A stretch of DNA of 64,000 bases. It comes from Phoronis australis. Taxonomy: Eukaryota > Animalia > Phoronida. The first letter of the stretch is position 1; each line of letters opens with the position of its first letter. Shown here piece after piece: positions 50,214-64,000 of this stretch. A program made the position numbers and the translations under genes. The DNA is taken from the NCBI GenBank assembly GCA_002633005.1, contig NMRA01000265.1:178328-242327 (forward strand), given 5' to 3'. The notes beneath the pieces were generated by a model that saw only the letters and a program-made list of their open reading frames with translations, did not search any database and was not told the origin of the DNA.

Positions 50214-51191
50214 CCTTCAAAATTTTGACTTCTTCAATTCACTGGTTATCTCCACAACTCAAAAGTGGAACTGATTCTGGGGTAGAAATTAAACATTCAC
50301 GCTCAATGCAATACTGGAAATTAGCTCAGTTTTTTGTTAAAAAGCCATAGAAGAGTCCTGGGAGAATGAGTTCACTTTCACAAAATCACCTTCCAGATAC
50401 AACTCTTCGTTCCATATTACTTTATAGATATTCTATGTATTTGTGACATTTAGAGGATGTTCAGACACTGAAAGAGAGAAATAGACATTAGGTCTTAATG
50501 AGCATGCCCACCTACATAATCATAAGTATCACTCGTCAAGAAACTGTGGAGAATACGCCAACTCAGTCGATATGGAGAGCATGATGTGCTGCTATTAAAA
50601 ATATTGAGAGTCCCTTTTGATTACATTCTCGGAGCCCGTTTTGAATGAGCAGCAAACAGGGTCATGCTGCACTTGTTTGCACGACATTCTTGTTACCCCC
50701 TNCCTTCAAAATTTTGACTTCTTCAATTCACTGGTTATCTCCACAACTCAATAGTGGAACTGATTCTGGTGTGGAAATCAAACATTCACGCTCAATGCAA
50801 TACTGGAAATTAGCTTAGTTTTTTTGTTAAAAAGCCATAGAAGAATCCTGGGGGAATGAGTTCACTTTCACAAAATCACGTTCCAGATACAACTCTTCAT
50901 TCCATATTACTTTATAGATATTCTATGTATTTGTGACATTTACAGGATGTTCAGACACTGAAAGAGAGAAATAGACATTAGGTCTTAATGAGGATGCCCA
51001 CCTTCATAATCATAAGTATCACTCGTCAAGAAACTGTATAGAATACGCCAACACAGTCGACATGGAGAGCATGATGTGCTGCTATTGAAAATATTGAGAG
51101 TCCCTTTTGATTACATTCACAAAGCCCGTTTTGAATGAGCAGCAAACAGGGTCATGCTGCACTTGTTTGCGCGACATTCTTGTTACCCCCT
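50214..51191. repeat. About 488-bp tandem duplication across an N; probable haplotype-overlap assembly artefact
   Basis: 50214-50701 and 50703-51191 are near-identical with scattered substitutions and are joined exactly at the N (50702). Confidence 0.85.
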
Positions 51192-52199: not shown

Positions 52200-52617
52200 G
52201 CAAGAAGGCCCGTGGCCGTGGTCTTGATGAGTGAGTTTAATACACTAACCTTGACGCTATGTGAAGCCAAGCATCTCGCTTGGAGCTTTGTGTGACAGAG
52301 GATGAAAATTTGGACGATAAAACGTCATTGTGCTCGGCCACACCAGCAACCAAGCGAGATAGCTCCGCTACCGAAAAGTTCGGCTTCCTTTTGTCCATGT
52401 CGTCTGCTGCAAAAGCGCTTCTTTCTCCACCTCCAAGCTTTGAAACTTCCACATCCGGTAAGCTACGTCAAACTTAAGACAAAACTTAAGTCAAAAACTT
52501 AAGACGAACTTAAGATCACTTTCTTGGAACGGACTTAAGACAAACTTAAGATTTGTCTTAAAATTGACTTAAGTTTAAGATTTGTCTTAGCTAAGTCAGT
52601 TTTGTTGGAACGGGCCC
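52200..52617 (-). mobile_element. Truncated terminus of a PIF/Harbinger transposon, parent of the 248-bp MITE family
   Basis: TIR ttttgttggaacgggccc ends at 52617. 52440-52617 is colinear with the MITE at 59981-60228 and runs directly into the Myb/SANT exon. Confidence 0.85.
52250..52398 (-). CDS. First exon of a Harbinger Myb/SANT-like (MADF/MSANTD) DNA-binding protein; rest of the gene not found
   Basis: MDKRKPNFSVAELSRLVAGVAEHNDVLSSKFSSSVTQSSKRDAWLHIASR has the RKxNFSxxE...L..KF....K..AW..IA signature and ends at donor aag|gttagt. Confidence 0.85.
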
Positions 52618-53299
52618 AGGTTCCTAGAGTAAACTAACTTCTGTAGGCCTATTTACCGGTGTTGGAAAAGTTAGCGATAGTTCATCGGCTGCTGCTAAAG
52701 TTGTGATGTGTTCTCTTGAGTCGGCTTTTTGCGATTACGTCACCTGACCCTTGCCAGTTTCTTTTCCCCCGATTCTTTTATAAAGTTCGTCGATGACGGT
52801 ACCTAGGTTGCGTAAATGTTATAACAAATTATAGGAACTTGTTTCATTTTGTTACGAGTTTTTAGTATTTTTATACCAACAAACTGAATTTTTGAACAAC
52901 CTTCGTGTTGCGAAGCTGTCATAATGTCCCGAAAGACGTATCATTTTTTAGAAAATGGCGCGTGCGCCGTGTCACGAGCGTGCTGTTTTTGAACGGACGA
53001 CACACTTCTTTGTTAAAAAGGCGGCAAATTATGCTACCAAATGACGTTTATTTGATTGTTTTCCACTTAAACGGCTGCAACGAACAGTGGGAGTGTCGGG
53101 TGACTACCAGATTTTGCATGCGCCCCCGCCGGTCCGTTAGCTTTATATGTTGATGTAGACTAAGTTTTACGAGGAGGTGACGAGTATAAGTCAACTATAC
53201 CCAGGTAGTCAACGGCTGTCTGAAATTTCGGTGTTAAAGGAGCTCAACACACAGTGGTACGATAGTCTTCATACAGCTACAGTCGGTAACTTACCTACC

Positions 53300-53500
53300 C
53301 TTCAAGTTAACAACGCTGAGTATTGGGTGACAGATGGCTGACTGGCTGGCTAGAGTCCACATTGCCCACGGCACAGTCACACCAGTGTAAATTGTTGATA
53401 CGGACTGATTGCACCGGCAAATTTTCGTCTGACGATGACGATGACTGGGTATCACTTTGTGTTGCCTCTGCTCAAACAGGTATTCCTGGTGACCCGACAT
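53300..53500 (-). pseudogene. Frameshifted exon resembling the P2X7 C-terminal-like (Kolobok accessory) protein, in a Kolobok-like relic (about 53234-53970)
   Basis: Across frames: MSGHQEYLFE / AEATQSDTQSSSSSDENLPVQSVRINNLHWCDC / GQCGL, matching YxFEP..acidic..RxxNxxWCxCGxC. Donor gtaggtaag follows; ttaaaggag at 53234 and gtcacgtgac at 53813. Confidence 0.5.
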
Positions 53501-54203
53501 TTCGCACTAAAATTTCATATTCCGACAATATGAAAAACGCTACTTGATTTCACGCTAACACAGGACACTGATTGCCCCCGCCAAATACATGTACGTCACG
53601 AGACTGAGCAGCGCTCCAAGTCTGTAATTGTTTTGAAATTCGTTAGAGAATAAAAGTTTAATTTTTGTTGTTGAATTATTTGTGAAATTAATCAACTATT
53701 CATGGAAAACTATCCAGAATTTATTCAGAATAAAATACAGTTCCCTTTTAATACTATAAACCGGGCGCACGCGCTACTGCAGCTGACAACTTGAGGCCAT
53801 TTAGTGTTACTGGTCACGTGACACGGTTAATTGCCGTGTAAACAAACGGGGAAATCTGCTCTTTTCAAAGCGCGATATCTAACAAATAAAGGGGCGGAAG
53901 AGTGTGATTTTTCCAGAAACATACAAAAACATACAGATGTATGCTGTAGCACTTTCTTGCGTTTTTTAAGAGTTAATCACTCGACAGGGAAAATATCAAA
54001 CTAATAGAAGATCGCAACCAGTGGCAGATTCTCGAATTGTCTGAGCGGCTGCACGCTTGTTATCCACTATGAGCGTTTTATTTTTTTCGTTTTTTCAAGA
54101 GAAACCAGTAAGATCGCGCAAATTTATCATTTTTAAATTAAAATTCGTGTCGCTCGATGCAAATACATTATATCCAGGAGACGCGCTGCTCACTTGGGAC
54201 GTA

Positions 54204-54233
54204 CATTAAATGCGACCCAGGTCGCATTTAATG
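54204..54233. repeat. Palindrome, 14-bp arms with a 2-bp spacer
   Basis: cattaaatgcgacc-ca-ggtcgcatttaatg. Confidence 0.9.
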
Positions 54234-55124
54234 GGGAATCTAAATTTAATGTGAACTACTGTGGAAAATGACCTCATTGGAGTCATATAGATAAATGACA
54301 GGTTTTTAAAGTTCATTATTGTGTTTTCGCCCACCTTGTGCTATACAACTAAATTCGAGAATTCCATAATGTAATAAGCAAAAAACAAAAACTCAGTTCC
54401 TCTCCTGTGCATCGCTCGGGATTATCAACGGACAAACATTTTTCTCTCACGCACGGCATTCCTCTCTCACGGATCTGAAGTCACCCCCGATCAAGAACCA
54501 GGCACTTGTTGGTGTTTTGCAGTATCTCCACATCGTGTAATTATGTAATCACAAAGAGATCAGCCCCGCTCCCACACATTATTTCGAACCCTTCCAATCC
54601 ATCCCCGCCCTTAATCTGATATACATGTACGTGCTGCGCGTCCCGCAGCCGACGAGAAATTTAAAATAAATTCTTCTCCCACGCACACTTGGCCTCAGTT
54701 CTCACGATTCCAAATAGACTTTTATAGTAAAAAAACTTGGCAGCTACACGAAGATTCTTAACATGTGGCCATGTATTTTGGATTAGTCTTCATGCAGTTC
54801 AGTAGTCAGATATTATATCCTGGCATGAGCAGTGTAAAATGGCCATTTGCCAAGTTGAGCAACTGAACAAAGGACTGTTCGAAAAATTATGCTTGTTTTT
54901 GCTTCAGCCCAGCTTTTCCACATCATATTTCTGGTCTGCACGCCGTTCGGTACTTTCACTCCCTAATTGCGGCATATATTGAAAAAGTAAGATTTCCAAT
55001 GCCGCACGTTACTCAGGTGATCCCGAGACCTAAACATTCGAGTATCGAACATTATTGAAAGATCGCCAGTTGCAGGTACAATGTATCGCGTCTGCTTATC
55101 CCAACCCCCAGTTGCGGAGAAACC

Positions 55125-55486
55125 CAGTGGCGGATTTAGAGGGGGGCCAAGACCCCCTAAAATTCTCCCAGATTCCATTTAGCAGTTCAGGGGTGCGAAA
55201 GTCCGACAGGCAGAATCCTAACTAATACATGCGCGAACCCAGGCCGGGGGGCTCGGGGGCTTCTTAGAGAAACAAAAAGTCCGAGGAAAGGGAACAAAGG
55301 TCCACAGGAATTCGTCGCGAATGCACAGTGCATGGGGTTGAACCTAGTACTCGTCTTTTTGTTCCAGTAAAAGGTCCACATTACCGGAAAATTCGACCCC
55401 CTCTATATTTTAGGCTGGGTGCGCGCATGTGAGCCTCTGCCTTGCCCCCCCACCCCCTAAAATCAAAATTCTGGATTCGCCCCTGG
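55125..55486. mobile_element. G/C-run MITE copy carrying a nested 202-bp TIR element (55228-55429)
   Basis: Outer cagtggcggattta ... ctggattcgcccctg; inner TIRs catgcgcgaacccag / ctgggtgcgcgcatg. Confidence 0.75.
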
Positions 55487-56360
55487 AATCGTTGAATAAT
55501 GACGGGGCGGGTTTTTACGGACGTGAGGTCATTTTTTCATGGGTTAAAAAGTCTTCAGATTAAATTTAAGCCCCTGTAAAAAAACTAGCCGGAGTCATTT
55601 TTCCTGGGGTCATTATTTAGTGCTACACCGGCTCGCTTGGGTACATTTCCACTCGGTTTCCAGTGGGAAATTCTGTATTTCGGGTATAGCTCGGATGCGC
55701 AATTCAGTCGTACAGGTTTGATGTTTTGATTACTATGTACTTTCACTTTTTTGTGCAAGTTTTGAGTCACAAAACAAAGAGCTCGTAAGCAGGCAATGCA
55801 AATCCACAAAATTTCCAATATCAATTTTAACATAAGTACAGATTTTGCAGGGATATGTTTTAATAAACAGAATAAATCTGACTTCGGAATGCTTGTTGAG
55901 AAATGAGTTTTTAGAGCAGTAAATATTTCAACAGAGAATACATTATTCACTTAGATGTACTGATTTCAATGGCTAGTGAGTAGGCTCGGGGATGTTATTT
56001 TTCAGAACAAGTAAAAATACATATGATTGTCATTGATACCAAATATTTACTTAAGTACAATTAACAAACATCATCATCATTGGATAAAAGCATATGCTGG
56101 TCAATAATTATCTTTTAATTGATCTTATATGATCTCAATCACCAAGACTGATTTGGAAACAACGCATAATCGCTCCGCTTAAACAACGGTGGCAGCAACT
56201 TTCTACTCCATGGCCGAACCAAAAATCCCATGACTCCAAGGCAGGACCAAAAAACTTAACTCTTTGACTGCAAGCATAACACTGCGAGACCGCCGATTTT
56301 CAGACTGATGCCGTCACTTTTGTCCTGTGTAACACTCTCCAATAGCACCCCGGCCAACCC

Positions 56361-56823
56361 GCGATCGAGAACAACCGGAAGGCGATCGAGAACGAAATTT
56401 GGCGCGAGAAGCGAAGCCAGAAAATGTAAGTAAATTTGATGAATTTTTGGTTGTTTTGAGCTTCAATACGAAAACAGAGACATGAGTTCAAGGCGCAATG
56501 CATTGAGGAAGAACAGGTAGAAGTTTAGGCTTGTGTCTCGTCCAAATATTGGAGAAAAGTTACGTTAACCGATGCATCGCTTGAGCCGAAGGTGATTTGT
56601 ATGTCATTTTTACAGATTTTGGTTATTTTTGGTTCTATATCAATATATTAATCATGAAGTTATGAAGAAATGACGTATGAAAATGTAACCCAACGCTTGT
56701 TTTCCGTAGCATTGTCAGGATCTCTGATTTATGAACCTTTTTCTGTTAAAAGAAGCGATCGAGAACGCAATGATAAGCGATTGGGAACGCACATTTGAGT
56801 TCGCTAAAGCGATCGATAACGCA
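56361..56823 (+). repeat. Five dispersed GCGATCGAGAAC-type motifs around exon 1 of the transposase gene
   Basis: Exact at 56361, 56382 and 56755; variants at 56777 and 56809. Confidence 0.8.
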
Positions 56824-56970
56824 TTGCGGTGTGTTGAACAATAGTGAACTTTTCAGTAATAAAGAGTTTTAAAAGTTACAAAACAAGTGTGGTTCAATGA
56901 ATTAATGATATTTTGCATCATTACTGTGTTACTTTCGTGTCAAAAAAAACTAAATTTCATAGCATAGCAT

Positions 56971-57265
56971 CCCATACCAAAAAGGCCTCCTGCAAACACT
57001 TGCAGCAAACTTGCCGCAAAAGTTTCTGCAAACCAGCCACAAACACATGGAATGATCTGTTGTAAGTTTCCTGCAACCCAGCCGCAAACATTACAGCAAG
57101 CCTGCTGCATGTTTGCCGCTAGCATGCAGCAAACTTTCACCATCCAAATGAAGTTTGCAGCAAGCTTGCAGCAAACATCTCCATGTCCTTATTTGGAACA
57201 GTTCCTGCAAGGCAGCTGCACACATTGCTGCAAGCTTGCTGCAAACATCTTCATGAGGTTATGGA
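56971..57265. mobile_element. CACTA/EnSpm-like non-autonomous element in intron 1 of the transposase
   Basis: cccatac ... ttatgg ends; filled with palindromic tgcagcaa(a/g)cttgc(t/a/c)gcaa repeats. Confidence 0.6.
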
Positions 57266-59980
57266 TATTTTCACAAACGATTTTATTTTTATTTCAGGAA
57301 ACAATTTCATTGTTATTATTGCCCGGCAAGCTTCAACGACAATGTAAAAATCATTGCCCACGCTGTGGCGGTGCACTCTTCCAGGGTTTTAAAGTACAGA
57401 CGTCTCCTTTTAGATGAAACTACTGGGAAAATGGGACTCCAAACTAAGACGCACCCAGCAGTTATTCCACGAGACGTATCAGCCGGGGGAAAACAAATTG
57501 TTGCGGCTGATGAAAGTGAGTACCGAATATTTTTACAAAACTGCGACGACAAAAGAAAAAAACGAACACGCCAATGAAGTCAAGCAATGATAGTGAGTTT
57601 GCCAAAGAAAACCTGAAAATAGATGAGACTCCCAGTAATGAAGAATTAGAGTTTGACAAGTTGTGCTTCTTGCTTCCCCAAGTCATAGAGACAATGAAAG
57701 AAAATGGTCTCATGGAATCTTACGTGAAACTGAATGAACTTCTTGCCTCAGGTAGACTGCCTTTGAACAACATATGTTTCCTACTATTCTTGGATATAGT
57801 CGAGTGGTTTTCGGTGGAAAACACTTCCAAAATGCGTTACCAAAACCCACAAACTCTTCGGTTCTGGGAAATTGGCTACCAGCTATTTCATGGAAAGTTC
57901 ATCAGATTTATGTCTGGACAACGAAATACAGGTCAGATTTTAGATCAGTCAACATCAAGGGGAGAGTATAGCCCAGATGAATCCAAAGTGAACTTTGCAG
58001 TNGATAATGCAGAACCAATAATGATGTATGAAAACAAGTGCAAAGCACCCCAGTCCTATAATCCTAACGCATACTACAAGATTCCTAAATATTATGCTAT
58101 AGCCTACAGTTACTCTCTGAGATGTTTGCTTACAGATGTGACAAATTACTCTTTACGTGCTGGTCAGAGACGTCACTTACTGCTTTCATGGTTAATTTCG
58201 ACCACCATCTATGAGGAATGTGCTGGGAGGAAATGCCAGAAGTGTATGGCAGTCCAAATCCAAAGCTACCTACCAAGTTCACACCTAGTCGAAAGCTCAT
58301 CCAAGAACAAATCGCTGCATTTATGGAGAATAACATCCACTTTCTCGGTGAGTTGATGTCGTGTGTTGCTGTGAGATCACCATCGTCAGACGTCCAAAGT
58401 GATGACGCTTATATATCGCCACAGAGTTCAAATGACGCCAAGCCAATTTTTACAGCTAGAGACTTACAGAACTGCCTTGTGTCGACGAAAAACTGGATTA
58501 ATCGGGCTTATCAGTTTTCTAGGACAACTGCATCCGAGATTCTGGTCTATATGGTGAACGATTTAGACCGGACTTACCATGCCGAAATAAATGTTGCTCA
58601 TCCTATAGTGTATGCAATGAAGGGAACAAGCATGAATAATGCCACCTTTAGAAGTACGATGAATCACGTTATCTCTGAATGTGAAGCAAGGGGTCTAAAC
58701 GTGCTGGCCACGTCTAGTGATGGACAATGGCATAAGTACGGAGTTCGCTGTGATGACAACGAACCATTGACTGTCTTGCAATTACAGAAAGATCACTGGT
58801 CAAGTGTGATGTCACAAGATAAGAAGACGATTATGTCCCAAATAAAATCTAAAGCAAATGTAAAGAGTTTTCCTGAAGATGTCCAAAAAGAGTACAATGT
58901 CAATGGTTCCGTGACTGTCTGGCACAAGACAGATTCACCGATGACTGGGTATCTAAACACAGAGCACTCAAAATCCCAGAGAAATGCAATCATTGATGCT
59001 ACTTGCCAGAACAGATATGATGGAACTGAATCTCAGCTGTTACCTGTAAAAGAAACATGCCTCGCACACCTTGAGGATGAACACTTTGAAAACACCTCTC
59101 TCGAAACTCTAAATGCTGTTGAAAATATAATTGAAAGCTCAGTAACAAATAACGTGCAGAATTCGCAGGAGTTCCTTGGACAGGACTATTTTGTCGAACC
59201 ATGGTTGTTCCAAGAAGAACCAGGTGCTACACAAAGTTTTGGCGTAACATCTGACGTGCTCTCTGGGGCTTTTTAGGCCATGTACAGTAATGACCATGAC
59301 GACTTCTATGTGCAAACTGTGATCGATATGAGTGTTGATATAATACCTTTAAGAAGAGATGGTGACCATATGGAATTGGGCGAAGAAAATCTCAACTACA
59401 CAGTATATGCCAATGATGACAACACATGTGTGGACACAGAACATGTACTTGAAAGTAAGGAGAATAGAAATGCGGAGCTGTTAGTTTCTGAGAATCGTTA
59501 CACTGTGGACACTGCAACGTCTGAATCCATGCTGAATGCTTTAAAAGCAAATGAAATGGCTGAAAACTATCATACATGGTCACGAAAAACTGTTGAAGAC
59601 TTCAAAAGACTTTTTGCATGTAAGACGACTTGCAATAAGGCACTCCACAAGTTTGAACTCCAAATGTGTCTACAAGTGTTACGTGTGCAGCACGGTTTTT
59701 GTTTTGACATTAAACCTTCAAAGAAGGAGCTAGTGCAGTTGTTCACGTCTACATTGAACTTTGGGGTAAATCCCCCTAATAGGAAGTATCATCAGCGCAA
59801 TCGAAGTGTTTGCTCACTTAGAAAAATGTGTTGTTCTGTTTTAGAACGTGCATCAAAACAAGAGCTTGCTAAGATTCTCGCAGAAAACACATGAGGTAAA
59901 GCTTTACAACAGTGGATTGAATCTGGACCATTGTACCACACTTCGTGTTTTCTTGATAGTGAAAATAGCATGAAGAATTG

Positions 59981-60228
59981 GGGCCTGTTCCAAGAAACTA
60001 ACTTAAGTTCATTTTTGACTTAAGTTTATGATTTGTCTTAACTTTCAAACTTTGAAACTTCCACATTAGGCAAGTAAGTCAAAATTAAGACAAAACTTAT
60101 GTCAAACACTTAAAACAAACTTAAGATCTCTTTCTTGAATTGGTTTTGAGACAAATTTAAGTTTTATTTTAAAATTTACAAAAATTTAAGATTTGTCTTA
60201 GCTAAGTCAGTTTTGTTGGAACGGGCCC
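59981..60228. mobile_element. Harbinger-derived MITE, copy 3, inserted in the transposase ORF
   Basis: TIRs gggcctgttccaagaaa / tttgttggaacgggccc with a TTG target-site duplication. Excision restores the frame SMKNW-FSRPNTDQ. Confidence 0.95.
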
Positions 60229-62626
60229 TTGGTTTTCTCGTCCAAATACTGACCAATACGGCAAGAACAGGTTCCACTTCACCGACGCCTGTCACATTTT
60301 GACTTGTATTAGGACAAAACTCTGTACTACTGGAATTGCTGGTTTAAAGCGAAAAGCATGGGAAGATGTTGCTCTATCTCGAAAAACCCATTTCAATATT
60401 GCTGTGATTGAGGATTGCGTTGGCAAGCAAGATGTAGCTTCAGCATGACGTGTATTTTCCAGGGATGTTCAAGAAAATATGCTTGACGAATATGTCAACG
60501 AGAAAGAATTTTGTGAGTTAATACGAAACTGGTTTGATGCCAAGGACGAGCCTGCCATACCTGATGCTGAAAGATGCATCCGAAGGCTTCGACTTAGAAA
60601 ATGGCTTTTAGAAGAATTTGCAGTGAACACGTTTCCGCCACAAACCCGATATATCAGAGGCATACCGATACAGACTTTCGAGGCATTGTTGGTGCACTTG
60701 GAAAGGAAAATGCAAATTTTCCCTTTCTGCAGAAATCAAACATATAATGTTCGTGCAATAGGTTCTCAGCAGGTGGAAAACTTTTCAACATTCCGAGATA
60801 TGGACTCCACTGGACAAGGGACACCAAAACCAGACTCCATTCCTCAAATGATGACAGCAGTTGCAGATTTAGACAACTGCAGAATTGACCCAAGCAGGTA
60901 AGCATGATTTAGAATCAAGCTTGTTTCCTACACATGATTAACTGTAAATTACGTGGAAATATCAACTCTCATGTTTGATATTTGTTATTTTTCAGTTAAA
61001 ATTTTGAAGATGTGGCAACAAAACGCTCCGTGAATAAAAAATGGAAAAGTTTCACATACCTATCCTCTGAGCTGTGACGGGAAAAAAGTTTTGAGGGCGA
61101 TGTAAGTGTAAATTTATTTTCACACAAGGGCTCGTATGTATAATCAAAATAGTTAGGAACTAGTTGGACTGTAAGAAATTACATTAATTTAACAATTAGC
61201 TTGTCAGGTTTTGTAAGAAGTGCCACTAAGAATTTGAATTGTTTCAAATGCATTCACGTTTACATGTTTAATCTTCTATAAAACCCCCTACTTGGTTTCA
61301 GATCATTCTATTTGTCAACCACACGAGCCGGAGTGTATCCAATGAGACAGTTTGAGTCCGATGGAATCCAAGAATGTTTTCACGGCCAAACGCAAGGCAT
61401 TCATTCTGCATTAGTTTCTAGTCTGATAACTCCAAGGTTAGTGTTATGTGATACACGTTAACTGTAATTGTTTTCTTATATACATTACTTTTTTCTGTAG
61501 TCAACTTTCTCTTTTTTCGTCTTCATCTATTCGTTATCATGTCGCATATTAGTGCTGATAAAGTCAGGTAAAGCACCATTGTTTTAAAAAATATTCAAAT
61601 CGTGGCATTGCCAAATAAGCAAGGTTTTCATGAGCGCCGGGTCAAAAATACCCCTCAATAAACAAACGTCCAAGCGCTCATGCGTCGTATTACGGTATTT
61701 CCACTACTTTGAAAACAACGGGCAAGTGTAATGCAGCTTACAGGCTAGCGTCGAAAGCTTTAAAGGAGGATTGATTACTCATTAAATTTTGAGACGTCAT
61801 AAGGTCGTAACCCTTTCATTCTCTTCAGTAGACGACGATACCAAATCCAAGATTCCCTTTTCCAGGGACCATTACTTTGATTCAGTACAAACAGATTGGA
61901 AGAAGCATCTTCGGAAAGGAGGGAAAGTGTCGTTGCCAAGCGAGTCCGCCCATGGTGAGAAAGGAGTGCGACAACACCATTCGCGAGATGACTCGAAGAT
62001 ACTTGCTCATAAACGACTCGGATTTCAAAATTTGTCAGAAGTTGTGTAGCCAAAAGTATTGTGGTGATAAAAGTGGTGGGATTTTGTTTAATGGTTTACT
62101 AATAACATCCATACAGAGTTGAACAGACTGACTTGCTACATCCTTGTGGCTTGTATGTGTTTTTTGTGTTCTTGGTCCCGAGTTTACTGTGCTATTTCAG
62201 TTCATGGGACATTGAAAAAGAGTGAGAGGAGTTGTAATACACATACTATATTGTGATTTTCTAAAAACGTAGTGACAATGTTGTCTTTAAGTCATTTCAA
62301 GACACACTATAGTAACTACACTGGAAATCAACAATATGAAAGCAAATTCCGTAATAATAGTAATCTTCTCAAAATAGGTCATAAAAATATATAAAATACA
62401 GCTCTGGGTAATCAACATTACAAAGGCATTGAACATTCACACGAGGTATTTTTGGAATGCATTGCACTTATTATAGACACTTATTTTCTTTTTAAAATCT
62501 TATGGAAATAACAATGGCCTATGGCACTTAGTATGGTCATTTGAATATACCTAAACACTACAAAAATGTACTGGTTCTGTTTAAGATAGATAAAATAAAA
62601 CAAATGTAGAAACTTTAGAAAAAGGT

Positions 62627-63223
62627 TCAAAATATCACATCTGGCAACTGCCAACCATAAACTCTTTTAATCAGAATAAAAACTAATTTCACTACTGGAC
62701 TTAATGAAGCTTCTGTTTTTGTGCCTACCGAGGGAGACATAATGCTTGTACGATTTGCCTCATTCACAACAGAAAGCTTTAGGCTCACTTTCTCTGTGAA
62801 ACATTGGTTGCAGGCATGACACTGAATTGTCTTATCTCCTGAGCACAGTGTTTCATGTTGTGACTTTTTGTACCTATTGAAAAACTTTTTGCCACATGAA
62901 ACACATGAAAATGCTTTGTAGTTTGCGTGCTGGCTCATGTGATCTTGAAACTTTGTTTGTCTCACGAACACTTTCCCACAGTCCGTCACTGGGCAAGCGA
63001 ACGTCTTGGTTGCAGTCCTGTCACAATGCTTTGTTGCCATGTGGTCAAGCAGTGTTGATTTTTTACTAAACGAAGCTCCACAAGTCACACACAGTCCTTT
63101 GTCACAAGCACTAGTTCTCCTTTTTGAAGGTGTAGACGTTAAGAAGCGAAAAAACTCATCTTGTAAATTCCCGGATTCGCCGAAGAAAATTTCGGGCCAC
63201 ATCTTAACGTGATAAAACTTCAC
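62627..63223 (-). CDS. Tandem C2H2 zinc-finger protein (two canonical fingers, one C2HC, one broken), possibly truncated
   Basis: LCVTCGASFSKKSTLLDHMATKH, FACPVTDCGKVFVRQTKFQDHMSQH, FSCVSCGKKFFNRYKKSQHETLC, IQCHACNQCFTEKVSLK (His pair missing). Confidence 0.8.
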   Translation of the reverse strand: MKFYHVKMWPEIFFGESGNLQDEFFRFLTSTPSKRRTSACDKGLCVTCGASFSKKSTLLDHMATKHCDRTATKTFACPVTDCGKVFVRQTKFQDHMSQHANYKAFSCVSCGKKFFNRYKKSQHETLCSGDKTIQCHACNQCFTEKVSLKLSVVNEANRTSIMSPSVGTKTEASLSPVVKLVFILIKRVYGWQLPDVIF

Positions 63224-64000
63224 AAAACAACGGTGTTTCTACTAATTCTTAAGCGATAAAATTACCAAACTTTGTGGTGGACAAAAAGTTTATTTTTCAC
63301 ACAAGATGTACTTATTACATGTACCAAATATCCACGACCATATCCCTGATATGGCACTGCGGCACCGCCCCGCGCAAGCGGTCCCGGCAGACAATCGTGT
63401 CTTAGACTGAGATGTGCTTCTCCTTTTTATCGTATTAAGACAGCCAATGTGAAAATGACAACCTTATTAATCGCCAAACGACGGTCACATCTTTACTTTC
63501 AGTTGCCAAGAAATTCTCAAACCCTTTACTTGTTTCTGGGGCTACGTGTGCGAAATATGATTTGCCTTTCACACGTTGTTGCCAACGTAAAGTGTAGGCC
63601 TACTCCAGCGATTCAAGTGGGTGAACTCACGCGTGCGCATCACTTCAAAGAACAGCGACAGTCCTAAATGAAAGAGTATACCGGCTTGGCTCTGGTTTAT
63701 TTGAAAATGAACTCAGATTCCCAGCGGTTATAAACTGAAGACCGGATGTCCCGGGACCGATATAACCCAGAACTGACGTTTTCCTGTTCCGATGTTTCCC
63801 GAGGTCGATGTTCTGTAAACCCTGTATTCTATGCCCGTAGCCAGCTATTGCAACTAAACTGGCACTAGATGCGAAATTGTGGTTCAAGTTAGCGAACTTT
63901 TCATTCTTCTCTTTATACACCCCCCCCCCGGCAACTTTTCGGTCCCCGAACCACTGTCGCCGTAAAATGTTCAGACTCCTATAGAAACAACCTTGTTCCG

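Follow-up and report, generated by a model that had tools for sequence, protein, structure and literature searches.

A decayed P-like DDE transposon of Phoronis australis with a YqaJ nuclease domain predicted to be nested in its catalytic core

Introduction

Can a DDE transposase and an exonuclease share one polypeptide, and what would the nuclease then do for the element? The question is raised by a locus of the phoronid Phoronis australis within 64,000 nucleotides of contig NMRA01000265.1 (assembly GCA_002633005.1, positions 178,328 to 242,327, forward strand; hereafter, the window), where the original prediction saw a P-like transposase with a YqaJ/lambda-exonuclease domain after bridging stops, two frameshifts, and one miniature inverted-repeat transposable element (MITE). 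All these lesions were found, together with a 3-nt deletion at 60780. Our reading, to which we give roughly even credence as a whole, is that of a decayed P-like DDE transposon with a complete YqaJ domain predicted to be nested in the core, in which the nuclease resects donor-site 5' strands; that the architecture consists of a P-like DDE core plus a lambda-exonuclease domain is almost certain.

Domain architecture of the gene and its family

Three-frame translation of 57200-62300 recovered all predicted motifs in the listed order (C2H2 from 57311; ExKC at 58030-58041; QLLSEM past the frameshift near 58100; SDG at 58719-21). They belong to a single polypeptide as claimed; the proposed length of over 1,100 residues gives way to an expected length of about 1,560, and the gene is spliced:

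56424..56425, plus strand: inferred end of exon 1, the AT of a split start codon, with the donor GTAAGT at 56426 (sequence)
57298..60897, plus strand: exon 2, encoding the C2H2 finger, a helical region, the gap, the nuclease C-terminus, RNase H strands 2-4, the acidic insert, DxxH, the P-type helical insertion domain, and the catalytic Glu (homologue tblastn, RNA cover)
57311..57379, plus strand: C2H2 zinc finger at the N-terminus in place of THAP (zf-C2H2_4 match below cut-off, E 0.008)
58002, no strand: single N in place of 1,021 missing bases (bridging contig; homologue residues 260 to 606)
58003..58265, plus strand: YqaJ/lambda-exonuclease domain, surviving C-terminal part (ExKC, YYxxQxxxEM), frameshifted near 58100 (family profile)
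58530..58730, plus strand: RNase H strands 2-4, second catalytic Asp at 58719-58721 (PF21787 weak, E 0.094; strands in the model)
58850..59977, plus strand: second insertion, separating strand 4 from DxxH (an acidic, variable part followed by a helical subdomain)
60229..60897, plus strand: DxxH (60284-95), P-type insertion domain (KQDV 60425-36; WFD), catalytic Glu (60776-78)
61302..61436, plus strand: exon 3 (intron 60898-61301, 14 spliced reads in three runs; join in frame)
61866..62049, plus strand: exon 4, a basic C-terminal tail up to the stop (18 spliced reads, intron 61437-61865)

The first intron (56426-57297) probably splits the ATG, as judged solely by its GT..AG signals; joining the halves yields MKQFHCYYC, which resembles homologue N-termini, and the exon 1 junction is not among the spliced RNA joins listed. 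The CxxC..H..H pattern of the finger recurs in 10/10 long homologues checked, the exon 4 tail is 43-49% identical to homologue C-termini, and the second insertion has a low predicted local distance difference test score (pLDDT) at residues 642-679 of the predicted structure. Pfam searches with ten window pieces gave weak matches only in this region, to the C2H2 finger (E 0.008) and to a TNP-like RNase H N-terminal domain (E 0.094), and none (0/10) to YqaJ; the case therefore depends on relatives.

Of the two Ns in the window, at 50702 and 58002, the latter hides the strand with the first catalytic Asp, the coiled coil, and three quarters of the nuclease, counted from its N-terminus. We compared the window with DNA runs of one sample (X1, X3, and X4) and RNA runs of one study (X6, X7, and X8), the latter chosen by species label, with about a fifth of reads used; run X5 (small share) was not counted as evidence. 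Contig 1 of X1 bridges 58001 to 58003 with 1,021 letters and keeps the frame, and homologue P0007 aligns with the window to residue 260 at the N and picks up again at 606, so that ~345 residues are absent, which the length of the bridge matches. The concern, voiced at the outset, that the N joins unrelated loci is thereby ruled out. Chance juxtaposition of nuclease and transposase parts was also rejected.

A query with the C-terminal core retrieved 13 longer proteins at 52-66% identity; 7/7 of those of at least 1,091 residues pass the Pfam YqaJ cut-off, and the other six start downstream of the nuclease. With the nuclease tail plus strands 2-4 as query, 599 clusters at E<=0.001 (340 at 1e-10) were obtained among 1.84 billion representatives, of which the best 150 were retrieved. 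In another 37 long proteins, the YqaJ match is above the cut-off in 23, below it in 4, and absent in 10, while the catalytic motifs are kept in all 37. Named hosts are Batillaria, Owenia, Branchiostoma belcheri, Branchiostoma floridae, Mercenaria, and Solemya. A tree of the family alone, built from 60 of 69 proteins after removal of near-identical copies and without a P or Kolobok outgroup, places the window copy with P0003-P0005 (support 0.93).

Domain order is invariant in the 44 proteins of at least 1,000 residues: C2H2 finger, helical region, D(G/A)KK strand, GDxDxWG, coiled coil, YqaJ, A(S/T)ExL strand, PxAYxMKG strand, DGQW, variable acidic insert, DxxH, D(K/R)Q..A..F, W..D, and E..F. 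The first and second Asp are separated by 495-579 residues (median 544; 31 proteins, with 495 from a doubtful alignment) vs 73 in Drosophila. The nuclease lies between the first-Asp strand and strands 2-4 in 55/55 proteins holding both (of 176) and precedes strands 2-4 in every protein that has nuclease and strands 2-4 (91, or 132 when the observed orders are summed as 49+41+28+14), the reversed order being found in 0/176; the 37 proteins with strands 2-4 and without the nuclease have at most 141 residues upstream. Intact copies with a separate nuclease, a possible objection to the fusion, were not what the homologues presented: P0007, P0010, and P0110, for example, carry both enzymes in one uninterrupted open reading frame (ORF). 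The exonuclease had been placed next to or inside the RNase H core; fusion within the same protein is observed, and a position inside the core, after RNase H strand 1 and before strand 2 with long helices on either side, is predicted by the structural model.

Scans of further loci yielded 1/23 candidates in metagenomes (L001, distant and intron-bearing), 1/15 in GTDB (L002), and 0/11 on viral contigs; neither L001 nor L002 extends as far as an end of the element or looks like the left end described below. In L001 (1097-3967), a distant relative, several introns fall within the region that is a single exon in the window, and the order of first Asp, nuclease, and strands 2-4 is the same. L002 has a GT donor directly after the DPxR codon where intron 2 of the window starts. 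L002, P0009, and P0199 are family members filed under Sedimenticola and Thiodiazotropha metagenome-assembled genomes (MAGs); these matches are likely contamination with host DNA because the L002 donor follows the same DPxR codon. Identity as a bacterial or viral gene was rejected.

Nuclease domain

A family nuclease profile matched 58095-58265 (independent E-value 3.5e-17) and a stretch ending at 58101 (8.5e-07), with no other match in six frames of the 64 kb. A lack of YqaJ similarity at 58010-58230, named beforehand as a possible refutation, thus applies to Pfam on the window pieces and not to the family profile. In profile searches, the family matches LHK-Exo at E 1.2e-6 and lambda Exo at E 2.7e-4, with alignments that span the W24/R28 pocket, E85, D119, and K131, positions kept in 42-44 of 42-44 covering sequences, in agreement with the interpretation of ExKC..YY..Q...M as a YqaJ core. 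The nested domain shows the features of lambda-exonuclease/YqaJ enzymes, namely a PD-(D/E)xK core, the W/R 5'-phosphate pocket, and the fold. From their conserved catalytic residues, both the nuclease and the DDE core look active. An Atlas search with the N-terminal 600 residues found one YqaJ cluster at 0.83, a lead only.

Relationship to P and other transposons

The downstream motifs follow the order of P/THAP9 transposases as proposed: an RNase H fold with a DDE triad, DxxH past the second Asp, a GBD-fold helical insertion domain, and the catalytic Glu. The DDE residues are conserved in 34/35, 42/44, and 41/41 proteins, and the D and H of DxxH in 42/42; the insertion places DxxH 168-562 residues past the second Asp (31 homologues). 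PF21787 scores above cut-off in P0027 and P0031. Structure comparison, suggested as a check, returned fold matches to P transposase at 15-17% identity, and a wide structure aligner matched the isolated helical domain to the GBD fold; Foldseek with that domain gave no match at E<=0.001. P transposase was not reached in PDB sequence searches, and Pfam gave no P-type match on five first-Asp stretches. Chains of Kolobok, MuDR, and Dada are missing from the fold lists, though this absence does not exclude any of them.

Compared with Drosophila P and THAP9 (6p5a, 6pe2; PF21787-PF21789), the protein shares the split RNase H DDE core, DxxH, the GBD-fold insertion domain, the basic C-terminal tail, and a spliced gene. 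It differs in ~470 extra residues with the YqaJ nuclease between strands 1 and 2, the second insertion before DxxH, its size (~1,500 residues), its low identity, and GTP contacts that appear to be only partly kept. No THAP domain was found in the 13 + 37 proteins, which have a C2H2 finger in its place, so that a strict definition of P elements or THAP9 leaves the lineage out. The GTP-contact residues of P (D528, K385, K400, V401, S409, F443, D444, and N447) were mapped by motif spacing alone: the V401-, S409-, and F443-like positions are mostly kept, the K400-like position is S/N/D, the N447-like position is D in 40/42, and at the D528 position, three residues ahead of the catalytic Glu, 31 of 41 proteins have L and 9 have Q. 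The missing THAP domain, the two large insertions in the core, the altered D528 position, and the lack of Pfam P C-terminal domains would fit a different reading, which we consider quite unlikely: that the nuclease has another role, such as destroying excised or competing DNA or helping annealing-type insertion, or that the lineage is a separate superfamily with its own chemistry. The lineage is likely P-related, as a member of the superfamily in the broad sense, and by analogy it may work like P.

Other transposons with nucleases were compared as they are described in the papers cited. In KolobokE (PMC9587614), the nuclease is downstream, unlike here, where it is predicted inside the core and lies ahead of strands 2-4; a CCHC finger follows the first Asp, and a zinc finger lies between DxxH and Glu. 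No such fingers were seen in our family, with no C/H column at >=50% between the first Asp and the nuclease; from DxxH to Glu, the only candidates are two isolated Cys columns (62% and 53%). The supplementary KolobokE rows show ADGSW/ADGTW..GDS, and DGKK and DGQW had 0 matches in the four supplement files, a weak test because aligned rows hold gaps. The domain order and the zinc fingers led us to reject Kolobok, and KolobokE with it. Kolobok elements have TTAA target-site duplications and RR..YY ends (PMC9587614); TTAA is absent at the candidate left end of our element. ISL2EU (PHIS superfamily; PMC4482050) also carries a YqaJ exonuclease, in a separate ORF beside a Harbinger-type transposase with THAP and HTH (helix-turn-helix), and has GG ends; this identity was rejected given the one uninterrupted ORF of the homologues. 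Dada of Laccaria and Ectocarpus (PMC3706591) likewise nests an exonuclease in a DxxH-type DDE core, but this is a DEDDy 3'-5' enzyme between the second Asp and DxxH, and Dada targets small-RNA genes; nuclease type and nesting position speak against identity. Lambda exonuclease and LHK-Exo (PDB 1avq, 3sm4, 3syy) are stand-alone trimeric toroids with an annealase, a partner not seen here.

The proposal of a distinct P-related lineage is thus supported, the family failing the tests for KolobokE, ISL2EU, and Dada and passing the fold tests for P. No description of this architecture was found in the openly searchable literature, as far as the accessible parts of PMC7776569, PMC7496540, PMC12730594, PMC7826175, and PMC10225492 go; Repbase Reports, Dfam, and subscription journals lay outside this scope, and a Repbase entry under P for the lineage is quite possible.

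Mobility and element ends

The lineage is very probably a mobile element. In one assembly of Solemya velum, ten loci fall in a single cluster (KAL5005948.1, KAL5011103.1, KAL5013497.1, and KAL5016408.1 among them); four contigs carry the same 1,532-residue sequence, each with its own accession, and the other loci are 97-100% identical to it. Two further clusters have four full-length members each, differing by 1-19 and 1-8 residues; these members may represent allelic variants or come from separate assemblies. In the window, the features of the putative left end are:

56346..56450, plus strand: candidate left end, beginning CACCCCGGCC (CA), a high-copy segment (mixed loose ends, depth)
56361..56820, plus strand: four subterminal direct repeats of GCGATCGAGAAC, at 56361, 56382, 56755, and 56809 (4 vs 0.05 expected)

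At 56346, loose ends whose upstream flanks are mixed were found in four contigs of X1, 36 reads of X6, and 31 reads of X7 (agreement 0.49-0.57). X1 depth is ~340 at the left end vs 42 in the gene body, about eight-fold, and the segment is likely shared with non-autonomous derivatives. None of 100 shuffles reaches four matches of the 12-bp GCGATCGAGAAC repeats, which are possibly transposase-binding sites. No inverted partner of the left end was found in the window at up to three mismatches, and no right end within the window.

Decay and expression in Phoronis australis

The window copy has frameshifts near 57562 and at 58099-58104, stops at 58212, 59274, 59892, and 60446, the MITE at 59981-60228, the in-frame deletion at 60780, and the N at 58002. 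Versions in X1, X3, and X4 are without the MITE, have G at 59274 (no stop), and carry indels that mend the frame. In the three RNA runs, the exons are covered and introns 2 and 3 are not, with GT..AG junctions. The MITE is skipped by 18 RNA reads and by X1, X3, and X4 contigs; the stop at 58212-14 is absent in 17/17 RNA reads and the five extra bases near 58100 in 7/7, the three bases at 60780 are present in 27/28, and the extra base at 57562 is present in 4/10. Summing the listed indels gives 1,563 codons. Among 40 displayed substitutions, a partial sample that gives no test of selection, 13 are silent and 27 change a residue.

Read orientation is single in X8 and in the 3' exons. In X6 and X7, exon 2 also has opposite-orientation reads bearing other alleles (at 57816, 0/8 vs 8/8 in X7), which suggests a second allele or copy transcribed antisense; reads of this kind span 57430-60970. 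A second version, ~9% diverged and at less than one-tenth of the main depth, occurs in X3 and X4 (57258-57952, 59096-59753).

Several observations weigh against our reading. The broad query held the nuclease tail, so that the protein set leans to nuclease-bearing members and insert-free relatives are unsampled. Pfam GBD and RNaseH_C domains were detected in 0/19 core stretches and in none of 50 proteins scanned, the core profile fails to reach 6p5a, and, because the structural alignment gives end points alone, the first Asp can be paired with D230 only indirectly. No pair of terminal inverted repeats (TIRs) and no target-site duplication was found, scans of 53000-57300 and 62050-64000 giving short chance-level pairs only. 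The expressed version appears to be intact, with the stops at 59892 and 60446 lying outside the rows compared in DNA and RNA reads. Finally, X1 contigs have flat, low depth over the gene and one main version, which fits a low-copy or host-kept gene too.

This last point, together with spliced expression in 3/3 RNA runs and the lack of a TIR pair, would be expected of an immobile gene domesticated in Phoronis australis, of which the window copy is a null allele. Such a gene is very unlikely to be the explanation, given that the window copy bears at least seven lesions and, in addition, three nested insertions, and given the ~9% diverged second version at low depth, the opposite-strand reads with different alleles, the high-copy left end, and the identical multi-locus copies in Solemya.

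Proposed function of the nuclease

Resection favors homologous repair. The nuclease probably acts on ends made by transposition, and donor flanks as its main substrate are close to an even call. The DDE core would excise the element by cut-and-paste as in P, leaving 5'-phosphorylated, recessed ends, and the nuclease would resect the donor break 5'-3' in a 5'-phosphate-dependent manner. According to the literature, lambda Exo prefers 5'-phosphorylated recessed ends and digests 5'-3', and the P donor break is repaired by homologous recombination or nonhomologous end joining. Resection would expose 3' tails and bias repair toward the sister chromatid or homologue as template; copied back from there, the element would be regained at the donor site and its copy number would rise. 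We put donor-flank resection first because YqaJ nucleases have been captured by superfamilies of differing end chemistry and because digestion of the ends of the element itself would put the TIR at risk.

Trimming of the element ends is nonetheless the main alternative, if an unlikely one: the DDE site would cut at or near the terminus, and the nuclease would digest the non-transferred strand up to bound protein, making the long 3' extension that P obtains by a staggered cut. Such 17-nt 3' extensions are needed at P ends, and the strand-cleavage mechanism is called unknown in a review of P; a 5'-3' exonuclease makes exactly such ends, the domain is predicted to be built into the catalytic fold, and the exonucleases of Dada and KolobokD have been proposed to process cleaved ends. 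Drosophila P transposase, however, needs no nuclease domain for such ends, the TIR might be destroyed by a processive exonuclease at work there, and YqaJ also occurs in superfamilies not known to need long overhangs. Donor-flank resection, our preferred role, has a further extension that is doubtful and offered tentatively: this could be an undescribed, still-active transposon branch of marine invertebrates, a superfamily of its own, in which one polypeptide excises and resects, making cut-and-paste effectively duplicative.

Neighboring features

The remaining features of the window are insertions into the element and an adjacent gene:

56946..57268, no strand: palindromic repeat insertion in inferred intron 1 (X1 contig without it, joint 56945 to 57269; internal repeats)
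59981..60228, no strand: MITE with 13-bp TIRs (GGGCC...GGCCC, 12/13 paired) and a 3-bp TTG duplication, foreign to the element
62627..63164, minus strand: convergent multi-C2H2 zinc-finger gene (zf-C2H2, E 2.7e-11; opposite-orientation RNA in all three runs)

The repeat at 56946-57268 is GCAGCAAAC-rich, and seven RNA reads show a 57-base tandem join from 57250 to 57194. The MITE, which we take to be Harbinger/Tourist-like, has ~85 times the depth of the gene, and a partial second copy lies 7.6 kb upstream (52424-52619). The zinc-finger gene is possibly a second gene of the element; no homologue was found at E<=1e-8 among longer proteins (0/137 candidates), and its place in the element is therefore unproven. 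It is interrupted by a repeat at ~63161, the X1 contig departs from the window sequence after 63164, and, compared with X1 and the RNA reads, the gene lacks ~27 bases at 62776. At 50214-51119, a ~430-bp direct duplication (94-96%) flanks the N at 50702 and is likely an assembly overlap. Rfam had no match in the window.

Implications

Several transposon lineages carry YqaJ nucleases, without a tested function in the papers compared. Here, nuclease and DDE core are in one protein, both active sites are conserved, and identical recent copies exist in a sequenced bivalve, so that single-gene mutants can separate the two activities. The family bears on P-type end processing, called unknown in the review of P, and its predicted nesting indicates that an RNase H sheet can be split past its first strand by a whole enzyme. 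Hundreds of invertebrate proteins annotated as "YqaJ viral recombinase," some of them in bacterial MAGs, are likely this transposon.

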